Position numbers and translations under genes: made by a program. This document shows, in pieces, positions 17,887 to 59,359 of a stretch of 64,000 nucleotides of DNA (the first letter of the stretch is position 1; the number at the start of each line of letters is the position of its first letter). The notes under the pieces were generated by a model. That model was given only the letters and a program-made list of their open reading frames with translations, was not told the origin of the DNA and did not search any database. The DNA comes from a candidate division FCPU426 bacterium (GTDB lineage Bacteria; Oederibacteriota; PGYV01; Palsa-1178), in assembly GCA_003159495.1 (NCBI GenBank), contig PLPI01000054.1, positions 8,409 to 72,408 of the forward strand, written 5' to 3'.

Positions 17887-20103
17887 ATGGAAAAAACAAC
17901 AGTTTTTATTTTTTTTACGCTAATTTTATTCTTTCTTAACTTTAATCTGCTTGCCGCGCCTGAAAAAACCGACATGACGGTCAGCGCGCGCAGCACGGGA
18001 TTATACGGCGTTATTGAGGCGGCCATACCGTCAGATTTCGGGGCCATTAATCCTTATAATTACGATGATATACTTTGCAGGGCATATGTGACATTACCGG
18101 ACAACAGCAGCCGTATTATTGAGGGGTTTTACGGCAAAGATTATGATTATTCACCTGACACATCAGTTTATACCGAAAAAGGCGGGGCTTTCAGGGTCAG
18201 GATTAGCCCGTGGAAATACGGAAGATGGAAATTTTATGTCACAGTGGTGAAGGACGGCAGGGAAGTTTACAGGTCGCCCTTGAAATATTTTGAGGTAAGG
18301 GGAAAAAGGGAATCGGATGGTTTTTTGCGCGTTTCGGACAGCGACCCGCTGTTCCTTTCATTTTCATCCGGCAGGCCGTTTTTCGGCATAGGTATGAACA
18401 CAGCCTGGCCCTCTGATAAAGGGTTGAATGATTTTAAGGACTGGTTTGGAAAGATGCACGCGGCGGGAGCCAATACCGCAAGGGTATGGATGGCGCCGTG
18501 GTCGCTCGGCATTGAATGGGACGGCCAGCCCGGCAATTATGGAAACAGGCAGAAACAGGCTTTCATGCTCGATAAAACCCTGGAACTTGGCCGGGAAAAC
18601 GGAATATACATACTGCTCACGCTTGTTGCGCACGGGGAATTTTCTACAAAAACAAATCCCGAATGGGACAAAAATCCGTATAATATAAAAAACGACGGAA
18701 TTCTTGACAAACCCGAGGACTTTTTTACCAGTACGGCCGCAAAAAAAGCCTTTAAGAACCGCCTGCGCTACATAATTGCACGGTGGGGATATTCCGCGAA
18801 CATACTTGCATGGGAGCTCTTTAACGAAGTCGACCTTACCGATAATTATGATACTGCCGCGGTTTCGGCATGGCATTCGGAAATGGCCGATTTTATAAGG
18901 TCGCGGGATGTTTACAGGCACCTGCTCACAACATCATTTTCAAATCCTGACATGGATCCGGCCATCTGGAATTTGAGCCGGATGGATATAGTCCAGACCC
19001 ATTTATACAACATGAAGGACGAGGCCTCGCAGGTTTATGAGGCATGCAGGGCAAAGACGGAGAATTACGCAAAACCCCATATAATGGGTGAATTTGGCAT
19101 GGATACTGACGGGGATTTTGCGAAGAATAATTCCGACCCGTCCGGTATCGGGCTTCACAACGGACTCTGGGCCGGCGCAATGTCCCTCTCCTGTGCCGCG
19201 CCGCTGTCATGGTACTGGAAGGAATATATCGACCGCGACAACCTTTACGGTGAATTTTCTTCGCTGGAAAAATTCACGGCCGGGATAAACTGGCCGGCCG
19301 AGGGTTTTATAGACCTTCAGAACCGCCGGCTTTTCCTGAAAAAAGTCCCTGACGGCCAAAAAGGCGGGGATGTCACCATCTTTCCCGTTGATTCATGGGC
19401 AAAGGCGCAGAAGGACGAATTTATGGTAAAGGCGGACGGGACCATCACGAATAAAAATAATTTTATAGGCTATCTTTACGGCAGGGAGCATCCGGACATG
19501 AAAACCGTTCCGATAATAAGCTTCAATAACGAACAGCCGGTAAAACTTGTCATAAAGGTCGACAAGGTTTCGCAAGACAATACATTAAGCGTGAGCGTAA
19601 ATAATATAGCGGCTTTTTCCGCCACCATAAGCGCGTCGGCTTATCCATCGAAAAAATATATTGAACAGTATAAGGTCTGGCAGTCGGATATTTCCGGAGA
19701 ATATTCCGTGGATATTCCGGCGGGGGACAATGATGTGGCCGTTGAAAACAAGGGTGATGACTGGATACGGATAACGTCGATAAAACTTGAGGGTTTTTTA
19801 AATCCGGCGGTGGCCCCTGTTTTTGCGGCGGGGATGCAGTCAAAAGACATGGTCATGCTCTGGATAAAAAACAACAATTTCGGCTATTACAACCGCACGC
19901 CGCAGCAGCCGGTTCCGCCGTCCTATCTTGACATAACAGGGCTGAACCCCGGAAGGTACGTCATTGAATATTACGACACTTATTCCGCAAAGGCAATTTC
20001 CAGGGCCGATTATATCGTCGACGACGACTCAATGAGGCTCGAAGTGCCGGAAATCGAAAAGGATATAGCCGTGCGGATTGATAAATATAAAAAGGAGAAA
20101 TAA
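17887..20103 (+). CDS. Secreted glycoside hydrolase, clan GH-A / GH5-like
   Basis: Signal peptide. WELFNE(V) catalytic acid/base motif and HIMGEFG nucleophile motif typical of GH5-like (beta/alpha)8 hydrolases. 738 aa with extra N- and C-terminal beta-rich domains. Confidence 0.65.
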   Translation: MEKTTVFIFFTLILFFLNFNLLAAPEKTDMTVSARSTGLYGVIEAAIPSDFGAINPYNYDDILCRAYVTLPDNSSRIIEGFYGKDYDYSPDTSVYTEKGGAFRVRISPWKYGRWKFYVTVVKDGREVYRSPLKYFEVRGKRESDGFLRVSDSDPLFLSFSSGRPFFGIGMNTAWPSDKGLNDFKDWFGKMHAAGANTARVWMAPWSLGIEWDGQPGNYGNRQKQAFMLDKTLELGRENGIYILLTLVAHGEFSTKTNPEWDKNPYNIKNDGILDKPEDFFTSTAAKKAFKNRLRYIIARWGYSANILAWELFNEVDLTDNYDTAAVSAWHSEMADFIRSRDVYRHLLTTSFSNPDMDPAIWNLSRMDIVQTHLYNMKDEASQVYEACRAKTENYAKPHIMGEFGMDTDGDFAKNNSDPSGIGLHNGLWAGAMSLSCAAPLSWYWKEYIDRDNLYGEFSSLEKFTAGINWPAEGFIDLQNRRLFLKKVPDGQKGGDVTIFPVDSWAKAQKDEFMVKADGTITNKNNFIGYLYGREHPDMKTVPIISFNNEQPVKLVIKVDKVSQDNTLSVSVNNIAAFSATISASAYPSKKYIEQYKVWQSDISGEYSVDIPAGDNDVAVENKGDDWIRITSIKLEGFLNPAVAPVFAAGMQSKDMVMLWIKNNNFGYYNRTPQQPVPPSYLDITGLNPGRYVIEYYDTYSAKAISRADYIVDDDSMRLEVPEIEKDIAVRIDKYKKEK

Positions 20104-20909: not shown

Positions 20910-20920
20910 AAATAAAAAAA

Positions 20921-20944
20921 GCCCCCGAAAGGGGGCTTTTTTTA
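20921..20944. terminator. Bidirectional intrinsic terminator
   Basis: A-run, gccccc-gaaa-gggggc hairpin, T-run. Between convergent genes. Confidence 0.7.
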
Positions 20945-20951
20945 TTGTATG

Positions 20952-21590
20952 TTATTCAAATGCTATATCGGAAACCGCGATATTGACAGTGTCGCCGTCC
21001 GGGCTTGAAAAATGGAAGTTGATGTTATGCGCATTTTTCAGGACTTCTTCGATCGGAAATGTCTTTTTTGCCCATTTAGGCTGTTTTAAATCTTCCCTGA
21101 GATCGATTTTTACGGTCTCGCCGTCTTTGGAAAGGTATTTATTCAAGGCAACCTCGTAATCCGCATAGTCAGTCAGGCTTTTTGCGGTTTTTGCATCCTG
21201 CTGGCATTCGTTCGCGGAATAAGGGATTGCAAGCGTAAGGCGTCCGCCGGAAATAGAACCCTTGATTTTAAATGAAAGGGTCTTGTAGCCGGTTAAATCA
21301 ACGGGAACTGCCCCTTTTCCCTCGTAGCATCCGCATTTTTCTCCAAGCGTCAGCCCCATGCCGATATAGTCCCAGCCGAGTTTGTTGCCTGTTTTGCCCG
21401 ACATTTTTCCCGGCGTGAAAGTAACCTCTGAATTGCCGCCGCTGGACGAGTCGTTGTAGGAATACCACCATCCTCCGCATGCCGCCGGGTTCTTATCCGG
21501 GGTGTTGTCAACTATAAACTTATTCCCCGCCAGCACTGCCGCGTACATTGCAAGAACAATTACCGTAGCCATTACAAATGCTTTTTTCAT
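20952..21590 (-). CDS. Secreted beta-sandwich (carbohydrate-binding-module-like) protein, paralog of the anti-sigma sensor domain
   Basis: Signal peptide. Shares WxYNDSxxGGNS, DYIG, SLTxYADY and IDxRxDLxQP motifs with the C-terminal domain of the CDS at 21620-22456. Confidence 0.5.
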   Translation of the reverse strand: MKKAFVMATVIVLAMYAAVLAGNKFIVDNTPDKNPAACGGWWYSYNDSSSGGNSEVTFTPGKMSGKTGNKLGWDYIGMGLTLGEKCGCYEGKGAVPVDLTGYKTLSFKIKGSISGGRLTLAIPYSANECQQDAKTAKSLTDYADYEVALNKYLSKDGETVKIDLREDLKQPKWAKKTFPIEEVLKNAHNINFHFSSPDGDTVNIAVSDIAFE

Positions 21591-21619
21591 CTGAAACGCC
21601 TCCTTTGAAGTTTTTGTTT

Positions 21620-22456
21620 TTAATAAAATTCAAGCCTGTCTATCCAGATATCAACCCTGCGGCCGTTGCCGTTCATATACTGCCATTTAATAATATTGGC
21701 GTCGGACAACACATCCTCGATGGAAACCAGATATTCCGGTTTTGTCCCGGCCGGCTGTCTTAAATCTTTCCTGAAGTCGATCTTTACCTTTTTCCAGCGC
21801 GGGGTAATGTATTTTGTGATATCCGCCCCGTAATCGGCATAGCTGGTCAGCGACCTGCAGATGCCGCGTGAGGCGTCTATCCGGCGCGATTCGTGCGGCA
21901 GCATGAAAATAACATTTCCGGCAGTGACCGAACCTTTTATCATGAACTCAATACCGCTGAATTTTGAAAGGTCTATGCCGACGCATTCGGGGCAGGTTGA
22001 GTGGGGGCTTAAAAAAGTAGTTACCCCTATATAATCATCGCCGAGTTTTGTGCCGGCTGTTCCCGTTATCCTTACGGCGTAGCCTTTTCCCGTGCAGCCC
22101 GGGGAACTTTTTACAAAGCTGTTTTCGCCGTTCTTTGAGGCCGGCGGCCAGACGACGGAATTGCCGCCCTGCCAGCTGTCGTTATATGTGCACCACACCC
22201 CGCCGAGTTCGTTGACACTGCTGTTGGTGTAATTATAATCTATCCTCATATAATAAGCCGCGGCCGCGACGACGAATATAATGGCATATACAGGCATAAG
22301 GCGCATGAATATGTGTGGCATCCCGGAGGCCGAAGAGGCTTTTTTTATGAGGGCGGCCCTTAACTTTGACATATTTTTTTCCAGGCCAATATTCCCGAAT
22401 TCGATCTTATCACTTTTCATTTTATAAGCCCTCGCTTTCATTTTTCCCTGCGTCAT
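21620..22456 (-). CDS. Putative anti-sigma factor: short cytoplasmic N-terminus, one TM helix, extracytoplasmic CBM-like sensor domain
   Basis: Lies immediately downstream of, and overlapping, the ECF sigma gene. TM segment LMPVYAIIFVVAAAAYY. C-terminal domain paralogous to 20952-21590. Start codon uncertain. Confidence 0.5.
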   Translation of the reverse strand: MTQGKMKARAYKMKSDKIEFGNIGLEKNMSKLRAALIKKASSASGMPHIFMRLMPVYAIIFVVAAAAYYMRIDYNYTNSSVNELGGVWCTYNDSWQGGNSVVWPPASKNGENSFVKSSPGCTGKGYAVRITGTAGTKLGDDYIGVTTFLSPHSTCPECVGIDLSKFSGIEFMIKGSVTAGNVIFMLPHESRRIDASRGICRSLTSYADYGADITKYITPRWKKVKIDFRKDLRQPAGTKPEYLVSIEDVLSDANIIKWQYMNGNGRRVDIWIDRLEFY

Positions 22457-23060
22457 ATATAATGCCCGCGGCCGGATTTGGTTGCATTGAACCTCTTATC
22501 ATTGAAAGGCCGCGTGAAAGGATGGATTTTACAGTCCCCGCCTTTTTATTGAGCGCGGCGCTTATTTCGGATATCTTCATTGAATCAAAAAATCTCATGG
22601 AAAGGACTTCCTGGTAAAGCGGGGGAAGCTTTACCAGTTCCGCATGCACAAGAGCGAAAAGGCTGTTATTGTCTATTGCCTTCTGGGCGTTTTCAAGTTC
22701 CTCGTTCAGGCTGTTTGAGGAGCGCGGCTCGTAAGACGGTGAGTTTTCTATCAGCTCGTCAAGCGAAGCGGGCGCATATTTTTTTGACCTGAAATACATG
22801 TTAACTTCATTTGAGGCTATCCTGTAAAGCCATGCCGAAAACGACGCGCCCCGCCACCTGAACTGCCAGAGTTTGTTAAGGGCCTTGAAAAAAGTTTCTC
22901 CCGTTATGTCTTTGGCCGCTTCGGCATTGCCGGTGCGGTATGCCGCGTATTTTAATATTTTTAAGTGATAAAGGTCGAATAAAGCGCCAAAAGCGGCCGG
23001 ATCGCGCCGCGCCGCCTCGACCATTTCTTTTTCACTGATTTTATCCAAAGCCGCCTCCAT
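22422..23060 (-). CDS. RNA polymerase sigma-70 factor, ECF subfamily
   Basis: Region 2 (FGALFDLYHLKILKYAAYRTGN...AEDITGETFFKA) and region 4 HTH (LPPLYQEVLSMRFFDSMKISEISAALNKKAGTVKS). Start placed at MEAALDK. Confidence 0.8.
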   Translation of the reverse strand: MEAALDKISEKEMVEAARRDPAAFGALFDLYHLKILKYAAYRTGNAEAAKDITGETFFKALNKLWQFRWRGASFSAWLYRIASNEVNMYFRSKKYAPASLDELIENSPSYEPRSSNSLNEELENAQKAIDNNSLFALVHAELVKLPPLYQEVLSMRFFDSMKISEISAALNKKAGTVKSILSRGLSMIRGSMQPNPAAGIIYDAGKNESEGL

Positions 23061-23330
23061 AATTATGCTTTCATTATTATACAATGCACGGAGTAAAAAA
23101 AGGTTGCAAAATTCGGTGCCGCCCGGTATGTCGGCCCGGCTTGTGCTCGGTTGTTGCCGTGCGGGCGGAACTTTTTTAAGGCCGTCGTCCAAGTTTGCTT
23201 TAATGCCCGGTAAGAACATTGTTATTAAAGTTTTACCTCTGCTTAATTGACACGGTTCTTATTGTTGGACGCCAGCCATAAAAAAGTCCCGCCCGCACGG
23301 CACCAGGGTTACCGCATTTTCGCCCCTCTT

Positions 23331-23404
23331 AGGGGCCGGCTCATATGCCGGCCAGAACCAGCTCACAACCTCAATTTGTGAGCCGGCGCAAGGTTCATTA
23401 TTAA
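23331..23404 (+). repeat. GC-rich palindromic REP-like element R1, a 74-bp direct repeat of R2
   Basis: aggggccggctcatatgccggcc...gctcacaacctcaatttgtgagccggcgcaaggttcattattaa. 65 of 74 positions identical to 23747-23820. Internal palindromes ggccggc/gccggcc and gctcaca/tgtgagc. Confidence 0.6.
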
Positions 23405-23526
23405 TATTTATCCGGAACATTAGGCCGCGTAAAATGCGTCTAATATATCAAAGAGGAGTGAAGGTGCAGACTTTTATTTAAGCGGTATAACGGGTAAAAT
23501 GAAAGGAAAGGAAGGTGTGAAAATTA

Positions 23527-23708
23527 TGGAAGGAAAAAGGGATTACAGCGAGAAAGAGTCGAAAATAGAGGGAATAATGAGGACTTACAGTTTTGGCCGA
23601 AAAGCCGCTGAAAGAATATACGCCATGATAAAGGATACTGACATATTAAATTCTAATTTTCTGGATATTACGGATAGTGACCGCGATAAGGGACAAAAAA
23701 CAATGTAG
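23527..23708 (+). CDS. Small hydrophilic hypothetical protein flanked by the R1/R2 direct repeats
   Basis: 60-aa ORF with RBS AGGAAGGTG 8 nt upstream; an upstream in-frame ATG at 23499 would give 69 aa. No recognisable motif. Confidence 0.3.
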
Positions 23709-23746
23709 CGGGACACGCCGTTGGCTTGCCGTGTTTTTGTTTTCGT

Positions 23747-23820
23747 AGGGGCCGGCTCATATGCCGGCCCGAACCAGCTCCCAACCACATTTTATGCACA
23801 GGCGCAAGGTTCTTTATTAA
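23747..23820 (+). repeat. REP-like element R2, direct repeat of R1, fused to T-motif copy 5
   Basis: 88% identical to R1. Immediately followed by aattgtacttattggttttgcc (23835-23878). Confidence 0.6.
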
Positions 23821-23834
23821 CTTAAATAATTTTA

Positions 23835-23878
23835 AATTGTACTTATTGGTTTTGCCTTTTAGCCTTTACCTTATATTT
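23835..23878 (+). repeat. T-motif repeat copy 5
   Basis: aattgtacttattggttttgccttttagcctttaccttatattt. Same head-plus-tail arrangement as the element at the window start. Confidence 0.55.
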
Positions 23879-24054
23879 AAACAAAACAAACACTCCCTTA
23901 ACCAACCGTTATTTTATCTGTTTTTTAATTCTGCCTGTAAAATATTTACAAAAATCACAATGTTAGTTTTCACACACATTAATAAACACCTTAAAATAAA
24001 GGGTTTTATTGTATTGAACCATGTGGAAAATGGCTGATTTAACCCAAATTAGCC

Positions 24055-24083
24055 TTGACAGTGGCAGACAGGGGGGGTAAAAT
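24055..24083 (+). promoter_or_regulatory. Sigma70-type promoter of the mraZ/dcw operon
   Basis: TTGACA (24055-24060), 17-nt spacer, TAAAAT (24078-24083). Confidence 0.5.
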
Positions 24084-24091
24084 AGAGAAAA

Positions 24092-24126
24092 GTGGGATAA
24101 AGTGGCATGAAATGGATTGAAATGTC
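24092..24126 (+). promoter_or_regulatory. Putative MraZ operator: four direct repeats at 10-bp periodicity
   Basis: GTGGG-ataaa-GTGGC-atgaa-ATGGA-ttgaa-ATGTC immediately downstream of the promoter. Resembles the GTGGG-N5 direct repeats bound by MraZ in E. coli. Confidence 0.5.
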
Positions 24127-24224
24127 GTGCCGCCGGCCTATTTTATATAGCGCCTGTTTTAGGGGCAAGCTCTAATTATTTTGGATGAATTGGAGCCAAT
24201 TATAAATTTTGAGGTGAAAACGAA

Positions 24225-24656
24225 GTGGTAATAAAAACAGGTTTTGTGGGAAATTTCCGCCATAACCTTGATGTGAAAAACAGGGTTTCTCTGCCCGCCA
24301 AGATAAAAAAGTATATCGAAGAAGTGGCGGAGTCTCCCGAATATTCTTCAAGGATAATGCTTGCAAAGGGCGGCGATTGCATAGAGGGATTTATGGTGGC
24401 CGACTGGCAGCGCATGGTAGAACAGGTGCAGCAGAACATGAGCTTTAAACGAAATGCCGGGGACGAGGAACTTGAAGAAATCGCAATGACGGCGGACCAG
24501 GTACAGATCGACAAAAGCGGCAGGATAATGATAAATGCGGAACTTAAAAAATGCGCTGAAATAGGGAAAAACGTGGTGTTCGTGGGGGCCATTGACAGGT
24601 TCAGGATATGGAGTGCGGAGAAGTTCGATGAAAAATACAACGGAGGCGGCAGATGA
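24225..24656 (+). CDS. mraZ: Transcriptional regulator MraZ
   Basis: Duplicated MraZ fold with DxKxR(V/I)SLP motifs. First gene of the dcw cluster. GTG start with RBS GAGGTG. Confidence 0.85.
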   Translation: MVIKTGFVGNFRHNLDVKNRVSLPAKIKKYIEEVAESPEYSSRIMLAKGGDCIEGFMVADWQRMVEQVQQNMSFKRNAGDEELEEIAMTADQVQIDKSGRIMINAELKKCAEIGKNVVFVGAIDRFRIWSAEKFDEKYNGGGR

Positions 24657-58060: not shown

Positions 58061-59359
58061 TTGAAGGAATTTCACAAGGGAAACCTGACAAATCATATAA
58101 TAGACCTCTCGTGGCCCATGCTTCTGGGAAATTTATTGCTCAACGGAGCGGCCGCTTTTGAGCTTTTTATGCTTGGCAAAATCGGGGTGGAAACCCTGGC
58201 CGCCTATTCCATCGCCATGTCCTCGGTGTGGGCGCTTTTCAATTCTGTTCATGGAGGCCTTATAAACGCGGCAATGGCGGTTGTTTCAAGAAAATATGGC
58301 GCAAAACAGCACGAGGAAATAAATGCGGCGCTTCCAGGCATGCTTTTTACCGGCGTTATTTTCTTTTCTGCATTTGCGCTTATATGCTACGCCGTAATGG
58401 TTCCGGCGTTCATATTCTTCGGGGCAAAAGGGGCGGTTTTACGGCAGGTCACAGGATATATGTCAATGTCACTTGTGCTCAGTTTCATAATGCCGTTTTA
58501 CTCGCAACTGCTGGGTGTGGCGCGCGGGATCGGGGATTCAATTACCCCGCTCAGGATAATCTGCGTTATTGTGCCGCTTAACATTCTGCTGAATGCGGTT
58601 TTTATAGGGCTGATGGGGCTGGGCATAATGGGCGCGGCTTATTCTGCGGTTGCAACCTATGTGGCCGGGGCGGCGTTATATACCATGGTATTTATCCGAG
58701 GCATTGGCGGAATAAAATTAAGGCCGGGTCCTTTAAGAAACCGGCTTTTTTTTTCGTATTTCAGGCTTTCAGTAAAGTCGATACTGCAGAACTTCACCAA
58801 CGACGCCGGGTCAATGATTATGCTCAGGATAATATCTCCGTTCGGAAACGCATTCATTGCGGCTTACGGCATTGTTTCAAGGCTTATAAATTTTCTTATG
58901 ATGGCCGGCTGGCCCATATGCAATTCGGGAGGCGTGATAGTCGGGCATAACCTGGGGGCCGGGATCAGGAAAAGGGCCATAGAGACGATAATGGCGAGCA
59001 CCAAGGTGTTTTTATGGATTACAGTGCCGACGGCGGTGTTGTTTTTCTTTTGGGCGGTTCCCATTATGGGGGCATTTTCCGCGGATGCCGCGGTAATAGG
59101 ATTTGGCAGGTTGTTCCTTATGATAATAGCCCCGGCGCTTTTGTTCATGGCCCTTGGTCAGGCATGCCAGAGCGGTTTTTCCGGGGCGGGATTTATCGGA
59201 ACGCCGACTTCGGTTAACATTCTGGCCTTCATTATAAATAATCAGGCCATTTCTCTCAGTGGCGCTGGACAGGCTGCCCTCAACCGGGCCTTCGGGGGTT
59301 TTCTGGGCGACGAGCGTTTCTTTCGTATTTTACGGAATAGTTTACTGGTTCATATATAA
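58061..59359 (+). CDS. MATE family efflux transporter
   Basis: 12-TM MATE topology with characteristic N-terminal region (NLTNHIIDLSWPMLLGNLL). C-terminus appears divergent. Confidence 0.8.
   Translation: MKEFHKGNLTNHIIDLSWPMLLGNLLLNGAAAFELFMLGKIGVETLAAYSIAMSSVWALFNSVHGGLINAAMAVVSRKYGAKQHEEINAALPGMLFTGVIFFSAFALICYAVMVPAFIFFGAKGAVLRQVTGYMSMSLVLSFIMPFYSQLLGVARGIGDSITPLRIICVIVPLNILLNAVFIGLMGLGIMGAAYSAVATYVAGAALYTMVFIRGIGGIKLRPGPLRNRLFFSYFRLSVKSILQNFTNDAGSMIMLRIISPFGNAFIAAYGIVSRLINFLMMAGWPICNSGGVIVGHNLGAGIRKRAIETIMASTKVFLWITVPTAVLFFFWAVPIMGAFSADAAVIGFGRLFLMIIAPALLFMALGQACQSGFSGAGFIGTPTSVNILAFIINNQAISLSGAGQAALNRAFGGFLGDERFFRILRNSLLVHI

Follow-up and report, generated by a model that had tools for sequence, protein, structure and literature searches.

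A conserved three-gene module of an extracytoplasmic function sigma factor, a candidate anti-sigma partner and a secreted paralog of its outer domain in candidate division FCPU426

We analyzed a 64-kb stretch of DNA (contig PLPI01000054.1 of assembly GCA_003159495.1; hereafter the window) from a candidate division FCPU426 bacterium and found in it a compact module of three minus-strand genes, which encode an extracytoplasmic function (ECF) sigma factor (sigma), a single-pass membrane protein (B) and a predicted secreted protein (A) that is a paralog of the outer domain of B. The module is self-contained and conserved, while its flanks vary. Our analyses point, with moderate probability for the model taken as a whole, to an autoregulated ECF cassette in which B is the anti-sigma factor, the outer domain of B is a glycan sensor and A is the output. 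The features that make up the module are as follows (aa, amino acids; nt, nucleotides; ORF, open reading frame; PWM, position weight matrix).

22422-23060, minus strand: sigma gene, an ORF of 212 aa
21620-22420, minus strand: B gene, 266 aa counted from M13; the full ORF has 278 codons and extends to 22456
20952-21590, minus strand: A gene, an ORF of 212 aa
23077-23109, minus strand: predicted promoter P1, TTGCAACC-ttttttt...-GCATTGTATAA, beginning 49 nt ahead of the sigma ATG; PWM score 28.7
22455-22487, minus strand: predicted promoter P2, ATGCAACC-N16-GCATTATATAT, in the 3' end of sigma and 67 nt ahead of the B start; PWM score 26.3
22313-22420, minus strand: cytoplasmic segment of B, about 36 aa, with a degenerate helix 1, a helix 2 (N-x3-L-[KR]-x-A-L) and a K/R patch
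22247-22312, minus strand: transmembrane helix of B, ORF residues about 49-70 (helix 48-66 in the AlphaFold2 model), a hydrophobic stretch kept in the B alignment
21623-22204, minus strand: outer domain of B, a CBM11/CIA30-like beta-sandwich, ORF residues 85-278
20911-20946, both strands: bidirectional intrinsic terminator from a terminator scan, closing sigma-B-A and a convergent SpoU methyltransferase gene

The three genes lie head to tail in the order sigma-B-A, from 23060 down to 20952, and all three are present at the positions and on the strand given in a preliminary description of this DNA. A strong Shine-Dalgarno sequence (AAGGAGG) precedes A, whose start lies 29 nt past the B stop, and the terminator after A has a 16-pair stem on the plus strand and a GC-rich 5-pair core with a T-run on the minus strand. 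Given the ribosome-binding site, the short gap and the terminator, sigma-B-A forms one terminator-bounded three-gene operon. No extra copy of A, B or sigma was detected in the window by tblastn.

The sigma protein contains Pfam domains Sigma70_r2 (residues 27-94, E 3.2e-13) and Sigma70_r4_2 (residues 138-186, E 2.4e-11) and no other domain, and it scores 79.4 bits against TIGR02937 (sigma70-ECF), well over the cut-off of 42.9. It is a genuine ECF (group 4) sigma-70 factor, as had been proposed from the sequence. No named ECF subgroup can be assigned, as the protein falls below the cut-off of every named NCBIfam equivalog compared (BldN, SigW, SigY, SigM, SigV and SigX); the closest is the BldN family (112.7 bits, cut-off 206), and SigW gives 83 bits (cut-off 209). 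The sigma start codon agrees with those of three orthologues in an alignment, and the final ~20 codons of the gene overlie P2.

Those homologues of B and A that bear an organism name belong to metagenome-assembled genomes (MAGs) of Candidatus Goldbacteria, also labelled Goldiibacteriota or FCPU426, some of them auto-labelled 'Spirochaetia'. Across 29 non-redundant loci, sigma was found directly before B without exception, and two arrangements could be distinguished. Type 1 (sigma-B-A) occurs in the window, in most Goldbacteria loci and in four Myxococcota/'Deltaproteobacteria' MAGs (L029-L032), with unrelated flanks. Type 2 (L002, L020-L025, L027 and L028) consists of one or more GAF-GGDEF genes, sigma, P2, a B-like gene and a gene for a secreted protein of 760-780 aa; these modules have B and lack A, and the third gene is kept in all nine loci. 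Its product combines an N-terminal F-E-x-G-T-x-E-G-W domain resembling a carbohydrate-binding module (CBM), a CarboxypepD_reg domain and a C-terminal sandwich like that of GH30C/Alpha-L-AF_C, with weak matches to CBM27, CBM17_28, CBM4_9 and GH30C/Alpha-L-AF_C. Several genomes contain both module types with near-identical promoter motifs, so that cross-talk between type 1 and type 2 sigma factors is possible.

Alignment of the sequences upstream of sigma genes revealed a bipartite motif, TGCAACC(T-rich)-N16-GC[A/G]TTATA. It shares its AAC (-35) / CGT (-10) character with known ECF promoters (the Bacillus subtilis sigmaW/X/M type). A PWM was made from 31 sites and applied with a threshold of 16; the maximum over 20 shuffles of the window was 21.2. 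An ECF-type promoter motif, P1, does lie upstream of the operon, with a score clearly above this maximum, and P1 was detected in 16 of 27 related loci at 30-78 nt upstream of the sigma start, Myxococcota included. P2 reached a score of at least 16 in 22 of the 29 loci, nine of these sites lying exactly at -67 relative to the B start, and it is retained in both settings in which it occurs, namely the coding tail of sigma or an intergenic gap. Where a sigma protein ends in Q-P...I-I, as some do, these residues are simply translated promoter sequence. Over the 566 kb scanned from related loci, the motif was otherwise found at three sites, one of which is the P2 of L001 located further upstream. 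Type 2 modules have P2 without P1. We predict that P1 is an autoregulatory promoter and that P2 is a sigma-dependent promoter for B and A, and we infer that the motif is recognized by this sigma factor.

B had been described as overlapping the sigma gene. The adjacency holds, whereas the 35-nt overlap is an artefact at the ORF level. In an alignment of 30 B homologues the start is mostly at the equivalent of M13, whose ATG at 22420 lies 1 nt beyond the sigma stop codon with a GAGGG Shine-Dalgarno sequence ahead of it, and the -10 element of P2 contains the upstream ATG of the ORF (22456). The most likely B protein thus starts at M13 and has 266 aa (residue numbers below are those of the full ORF). 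B is an N-in single-pass membrane protein with the K/R patch ahead of the transmembrane helix, and the short N-terminal segment, the single helix and the big outer domain agree with the anti-sigma-like architecture that had been attributed to it. We found 49 homologues of B; none has a Pfam domain, and where the source names them they are called 'hypothetical protein'. At the N-terminus, the B proteins of Goldbacteria type 1, of type 2 and of Myxococcota, three clades with a mutual identity of only ~35-45%, all retain the pattern M-E-E-K-D-[LI]-I-x-K-L ... L-P-x-N-[RK]-x-x-L-[KR]-x-A-L. In the Myxococcota modules the sigma stop and the B start abut or overlap, with no promoter between them. 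The constant adjacency to sigma, the N-in single-pass topology and the conserved cytoplasmic pattern together make it likely that B acts as an anti-sigma factor.

Class I anti-sigma domains are N-terminal, comprise ~80-90 aa in four helices and often carry an HxxxCxxC motif. Such a domain was ruled out for B, which has ~36-40 cytoplasmic residues, no zinc motif and no Pfam match; its cytoplasmic sequence contains no Cys or His motif. The suggestion that the N-terminus of B is an anti-sigma domain therefore fails in its canonical form, since the AlphaFold2 monomer shows one weakly predicted helix there (residues 26-42, predicted local distance difference test score (pLDDT) 50-69), the second of the two conserved segments. 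The segment would be compatible with a two-helix clamp of the CnrY/NepR type, an accepted class of anti-sigma factor (class II; PMC6101532), and class II segments would not be expected to fold alone. The C-terminal half of the transmembrane helix is Ala-rich (VVAAAAYYM), and [AV]AA is kept in type 1 B proteins. Ala-rich cryptic degradation tags are exposed by site-2 cleavage of RsiW and RseA, and by analogy this half of the helix may hint at regulated intramembrane proteolysis of B.

A carries a signal peptide at about residues 1-22 (21525-21590; MKK, a hydrophobic stretch and VLA/G, read by eye from the sequence) and is predicted to be secreted via Sec in the typical manner. Its relationship to the sensor domain of B, which had been noticed from common motifs, proved robust: BLASTP matched A to the last ~195 residues of B with 34% identity (E 9e-32), comparison of the two family profiles with hhalign covered 212 columns with 100% probability (E 9.5e-62), and all the motifs quoted earlier (W.YNDS..GGNS, DYIG, SLT.YADY, KID.R.DL.QP and E[ED]VL) are seen in the A/B alignment. 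In a neighbour-joining tree of the domain, all A sequences split from all B sequences and the subtrees within the two clades are congruent, which indicates an old A/B duplication and inheritance of the pair as a unit. We found 47 homologues of A, three of which carry a precomputed PF08547 match. Window A and its closest relatives (P0051 and P0052) lack a ~20-residue hairpin (consensus KFE..K.G..YAA.MKG; site about residues 57-62), which is in all other A proteins and has a strongly conserved equivalent in B.

AlphaFold2 models built from family alignments had a mean pLDDT of 83.9 for B (over 90 across residues 80-278) and 80.6 for A. Foldseek returned identical top matches for both models, with CBM11 the best in the Protein Data Bank (PDB) for each (E 3e-8 for the A model against 1v0a), and according to these models A and the outer domain of B are CtCBM11-like beta-jelly-rolls. 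The top structural match to CBM11 has 23% identity. The two sandwiches are related in profile comparison and keep the same fold. Neither A nor B matches any Pfam model at threshold, CBM_11 and CIA30 included. At E<=1, CIA30 matched 18 of the 31 aligned A-family members (best 6.1e-7), while CBM_11 matched 2 of the 31 A relatives and 3 of 30 B relatives, and a few matched CBM30. A PDB sequence search with the A-family profile gave nothing meaningful (best E 0.26, unrelated proteins), so the kinship with CBM11 is visible by structure comparison only.

When 1.84 billion representative proteins were searched with the profile, 277 relatives emerged at E<=1e-3, and the domain family is hence small. 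Many of these are B-like (270-295 aa, with the domain from about residue 60-85), and many others are long multidomain proteins. Among the 10 long relatives scanned, the domain is fused to a GH5 cellulase (P0107), to GH8 (P0113, P0124 and P0130), GH10 (P0117) and CotH (P0104) domains (GH, glycoside hydrolase); others of the 10 contain tandem CBM11/CIA30 repeats. The GH5-, GH10- and CotH-fused relatives are lipoproteins bearing the hallmark motifs of the family (LT.[WY]ADYE, DLRKD[FL]KQP.W and IE.VL, which are specific to it). The Goldbacteria degrade cellulose, and no other CBM is as abundant in them as CBM11 (PMC7031533). In view of the GH and CotH fusions and of a cellulolytic, CBM11-rich host phylum, carbohydrate binding is the best reading of the domain, as the preliminary description had supposed from its appearance, and the fold and the fusions suggest that the module may respond to glycans. 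Three cysteines are invariant in B (C155-P-x-C158 and C200), the CPxC spacing resembling redox-active motifs; A and the GH-fused relatives have two cysteines only, at positions partly different from those of B.

We propose the following mechanism. The two-helix cytoplasmic segment of B would clamp sigma in the class II manner of CnrY and NepR, and the outer domain would bind a beta-linked glycan or oligosaccharide. Once ligand is bound, B would be lost, most likely through regulated proteolysis, and the freed sigma factor would fire P1, yielding more sigma, B and A, as well as P2, yielding extra B and A and no extra sigma. Since anti-sigma factor and paralog would then be made in excess of sigma, P2 would constitute a built-in negative feedback that resupplies the anti-sigma factor. 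A would be a sigma-dependent output produced alongside it.

Several observations weigh against this model. As regards B, the cytoplasmic segment was modelled with low confidence (pLDDT 35-69), none of the 30 B-family members has an anti-sigma Pfam match even at E<=1, and the segment lacks HxxxCxxC and is far shorter than a class I domain; binding of B to sigma is thus suggested by context and architecture. As regards the regulon, Myxococcota modules have P1 without P2, so that the dual-promoter design is not universal, no motif was found upstream of a carbohydrate-active enzyme (CAZyme) gene in the sequences scanned, and within the window the motif has just one further strong site, which sits inside a MatE gene. 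As regards the ligand, the family is by sequence apparently closer to CIA30, an assembly-factor family, than to CBM_11 (18 versus 2 of 31), which makes a non-glycan ligand possible, and loss of the hairpin may change the binding properties of window A.

The site in the MatE gene (58650-58683, plus strand, in ORF 58061-59359) reads TTGCAACC-N17-GCGTTATATAC, and has a PWM score of 27.1. Two MatE (MATE efflux) genes stand in tandem here, and the site is at mid-length of the first. Related MatE genes in L034 and L035 (89% aa identity) and in L037 (50%) keep the motif down to its synonymous codon choices, whereas L036 (80%) has lost it. The site may have arisen by chance, or it may serve the second MatE gene as an internal promoter dependent on sigma.

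The brevity of the cytoplasmic segment (~36-40 aa), its weak sequence conservation and the lack of a recognizable anti-sigma domain would also fit another reading, in which B is not an anti-sigma factor and instead a membrane-anchored, glycan-binding member of the regulon, sigma being controlled in some other way, e.g., by transcription only or from the upstream GAF-GGDEF operon of type 2. B has its own sigma-type promoter (P2), and the type 2 sigma gene lacks P1 and lies behind GGDEF genes, both of which are in keeping with this. However, the invariable sigma-B adjacency spans two phyla, with overlap or near-abutment where P2 is absent, and the helix pattern, the K/R patch and the transmembrane helix are kept at ~35% identity, which would be unexpected for a plain anchor. 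Furthermore, an ECF sigma factor with a sigma-dependent partner and no inhibitor would stay on constitutively. We regard this reading as distinctly unlikely.

More improbable still, in our assessment, is that the outer domain is CIA30-like in function, binding a protein or a lipid-linked envelope component (e.g., unassembled envelope proteins), which would make the cassette a general envelope-stress module. The CIA30 matches given above are what speaks for it. Against it stand the best-scoring relatives, in which the domain is appended to GH5, GH8 or GH10 catalytic domains and has motifs in common with A and B, the top structural match to CBM11, the cellulolytic and CBM11-rich host phylum, and the CBM/GH-like signatures in the third gene of type 2.

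Among the roles offered earlier for A, which were ligand scavenger, decoy, co-sensor and regulated product, the last is the best supported, by the predicted co-transcription with B from a sigma-type promoter and by the enzyme-like protein in the same slot of type 2. Through this predicted co-expression, A would belong to the regulon of sigma as one of its outputs. With a secreted CBM/GH-like protein standing in type 2 where A stands in type 1, the third position of the cassette seems to be its place for an effector. A is most likely a free glycan-binding protein for the same ligand class as the sensor, and it could additionally buffer the signal by ligand competition.

We also considered that A is a periplasmic co-regulator of B, comparable to RseB or CnrX and built as a copy of the sensor, that gates the proteolysis of B and sets its threshold, either by pairing with the outer domain of B through homotypic beta-sandwich contacts or by competing for its ligand. 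Made from sigma's own promoters, it would add a second negative feedback loop. The A gene directly follows B and is predicted to be co-transcribed with it from P2, and in operons of the rpoE-rseA-rseB type the accessory regulator gene sits after the anti-sigma gene. In addition, the pair has been passed on together, with congruent trees, from a time before the dispersal of the module between Goldbacteria and Myxococcota, and they keep one fold with many conserved positions in common. On the other hand, type 2 has B without A, so that the B family works without it, the slot is occupied there by an enzyme-like secreted protein, and window A lacks the hairpin that B retains. This role is a possible but doubtful one. 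A related proposal is unlikely, namely that A mimics the sensor, either as a heterodimer with B that shields the site-1 cleavage position until ligand removes A, or as a decoy that soaks up ligand. If it were true, the cell would gauge ligand against a self-made copy of its receptor, and the dual promoters would keep anti-sigma factor and mimic above sigma; to our knowledge, paralog-based extracytoplasmic feedback or partner switching is undescribed for ECF systems.

Returning to the favoured model, with B as anti-sigma factor and A as output, we compared the module with known systems. The functionally nearest are the SigI/RsgI pairs and the ECF-like sigma24C/Rsi24C of Clostridium (Acetivibrio) thermocellum, in which a membrane anti-sigma factor with a CAZy-type outer module senses polysaccharide (PMC3990059; see also PMC6582324 and PMC10328401 on biomass sensing). 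As in those systems, sigma lies beside a single-pass membrane partner with a CAZy-type outer part and is predicted to be autoregulated, the host degrades cellulose and a genome can carry multiple paralogous pairs. The outer modules differ, being CBM3, CBM42, PA14 or GH10 in SigI/RsgI, GH5-like in Rsi24C and of the CBM11/CIA30 type here. Unlike SigI, the sigma factor is a plain ECF protein (r2 and r4), and B, with its ~36-40 cytoplasmic residues, lacks RsgI_N, for which neither B nor its relatives gave a Pfam match. The host is no Firmicute and is tentatively diderm. Finally, as far as we know, neither a second, internal promoter nor a free sensor paralog that is secreted, both present in the module, has been described for SigI/RsgI or sigma24C/Rsi24C. 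The module stands outside the SigI/RsgI family and may work similarly.

B may resemble CnrY of CnrH/CnrY/CnrX, as well as NepR, in using a very short two-helix anti-sigma moiety as a clamp (PMC6101532), and CnrYXH has a separate periplasmic sensor in its operon, as A is separate here. By contrast, CnrY has almost no outer domain and CnrX is unrelated to CnrY, whereas here B holds the sensor and A is its paralog; B has no sequence similarity to CnrY or NepR. RpoE/RseA/RseB shares the order of sigma factor, single-pass anti-sigma factor and soluble periplasmic protein, an autoregulated ECF promoter and the expected regulated proteolysis. However, the anti-sigma domain of RseA belongs to class I, RseB is no paralog of the periplasmic domain of RseA and binds lipid/lipopolysaccharide, and there is no homology between RseA/RseB and A/B. 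Compared with CBM11 of C. thermocellum Lic26A-Cel5E (1v0a and 6r3m) and with CIA30 (PF08547; NDUFAF1, 7zkq), A and B fall below both Pfam thresholds and have motifs and conserved cysteines of their own; the domain serves B as a sensor anchored in the membrane, and in A it is secreted by itself. A literature search found no anti-sigma module with CIA30, and none with CBM11 as far as titles or abstracts tell.

Among the window neighbours, a gene at 17887-20103 on the plus strand had been linked to the module as a GH5-like hydrolase. We rejected this link, as the gene lies on the opposite strand behind the SpoU gene and the bidirectional terminator, has no motif site ahead of it, and was not among the called or surveyed genes beside the module in loci whose flanks were examined. 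It encodes a secreted protein of 738 aa that matches PDB entries 9gmj/9gpc ('DUF5060 domain-containing protein', E 5.6e-72) and has weak similarity to GH5 mannanases; Pfam gives DUF5060 below threshold only. Within B, a perfect sigma-70 consensus in antisense (TTGACA-16-TATAAT, 12/12; 22212-22239, plus strand) was discarded as a conserved feature, since L006 and L007, which are the closest relatives, lack it; it comes from D-Y-N and V-N codons and is probably incidental. Upstream of the sigma operon, ~1 kb of hairpin-rich sequence without a convincing ORF (23220-24225) leads to mraZ (24225-24656), which opens a long plus-strand division and cell-wall cluster (rsmH, an ftsL-like gene, a penicillin-binding protein gene and others). 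No Rfam family matched at gathering thresholds anywhere in the window, including this ~1 kb. A gene for a LolC/MacB-like permease in the window tentatively indicates a diderm host; the sensor would then be periplasmic.

The sigma-B-A module is a variant within the known envelope signalling devices and introduces no new principle. What is new is a conserved, terminator-bounded module with a doubled ECF-type motif and a type 2 sister module, representing an uncharacterized ECF group in a candidate phylum of cellulose degraders for which metagenomes and single cells are the only sources. The description provides a precise motif for the promoters, predictions of where transcripts or proteins start and a candidate for a minimal anti-sigma factor. 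If the model is correct, a sigma gene of ~640 nt, an inhibitory peptide of ~40 residues, a CBM-type sensor and a 33-nt promoter would together make a compact, portable glycan-responsive switch, of use to synthetic biology and to the study of polysaccharide regulation in uncultured degraders. The conserved free copy of the sensor offers a concrete case of receptor duplication for output or feedback, and the type 2 module, with its CBM/GH-like enzyme, ties the family to carbohydrate turnover.

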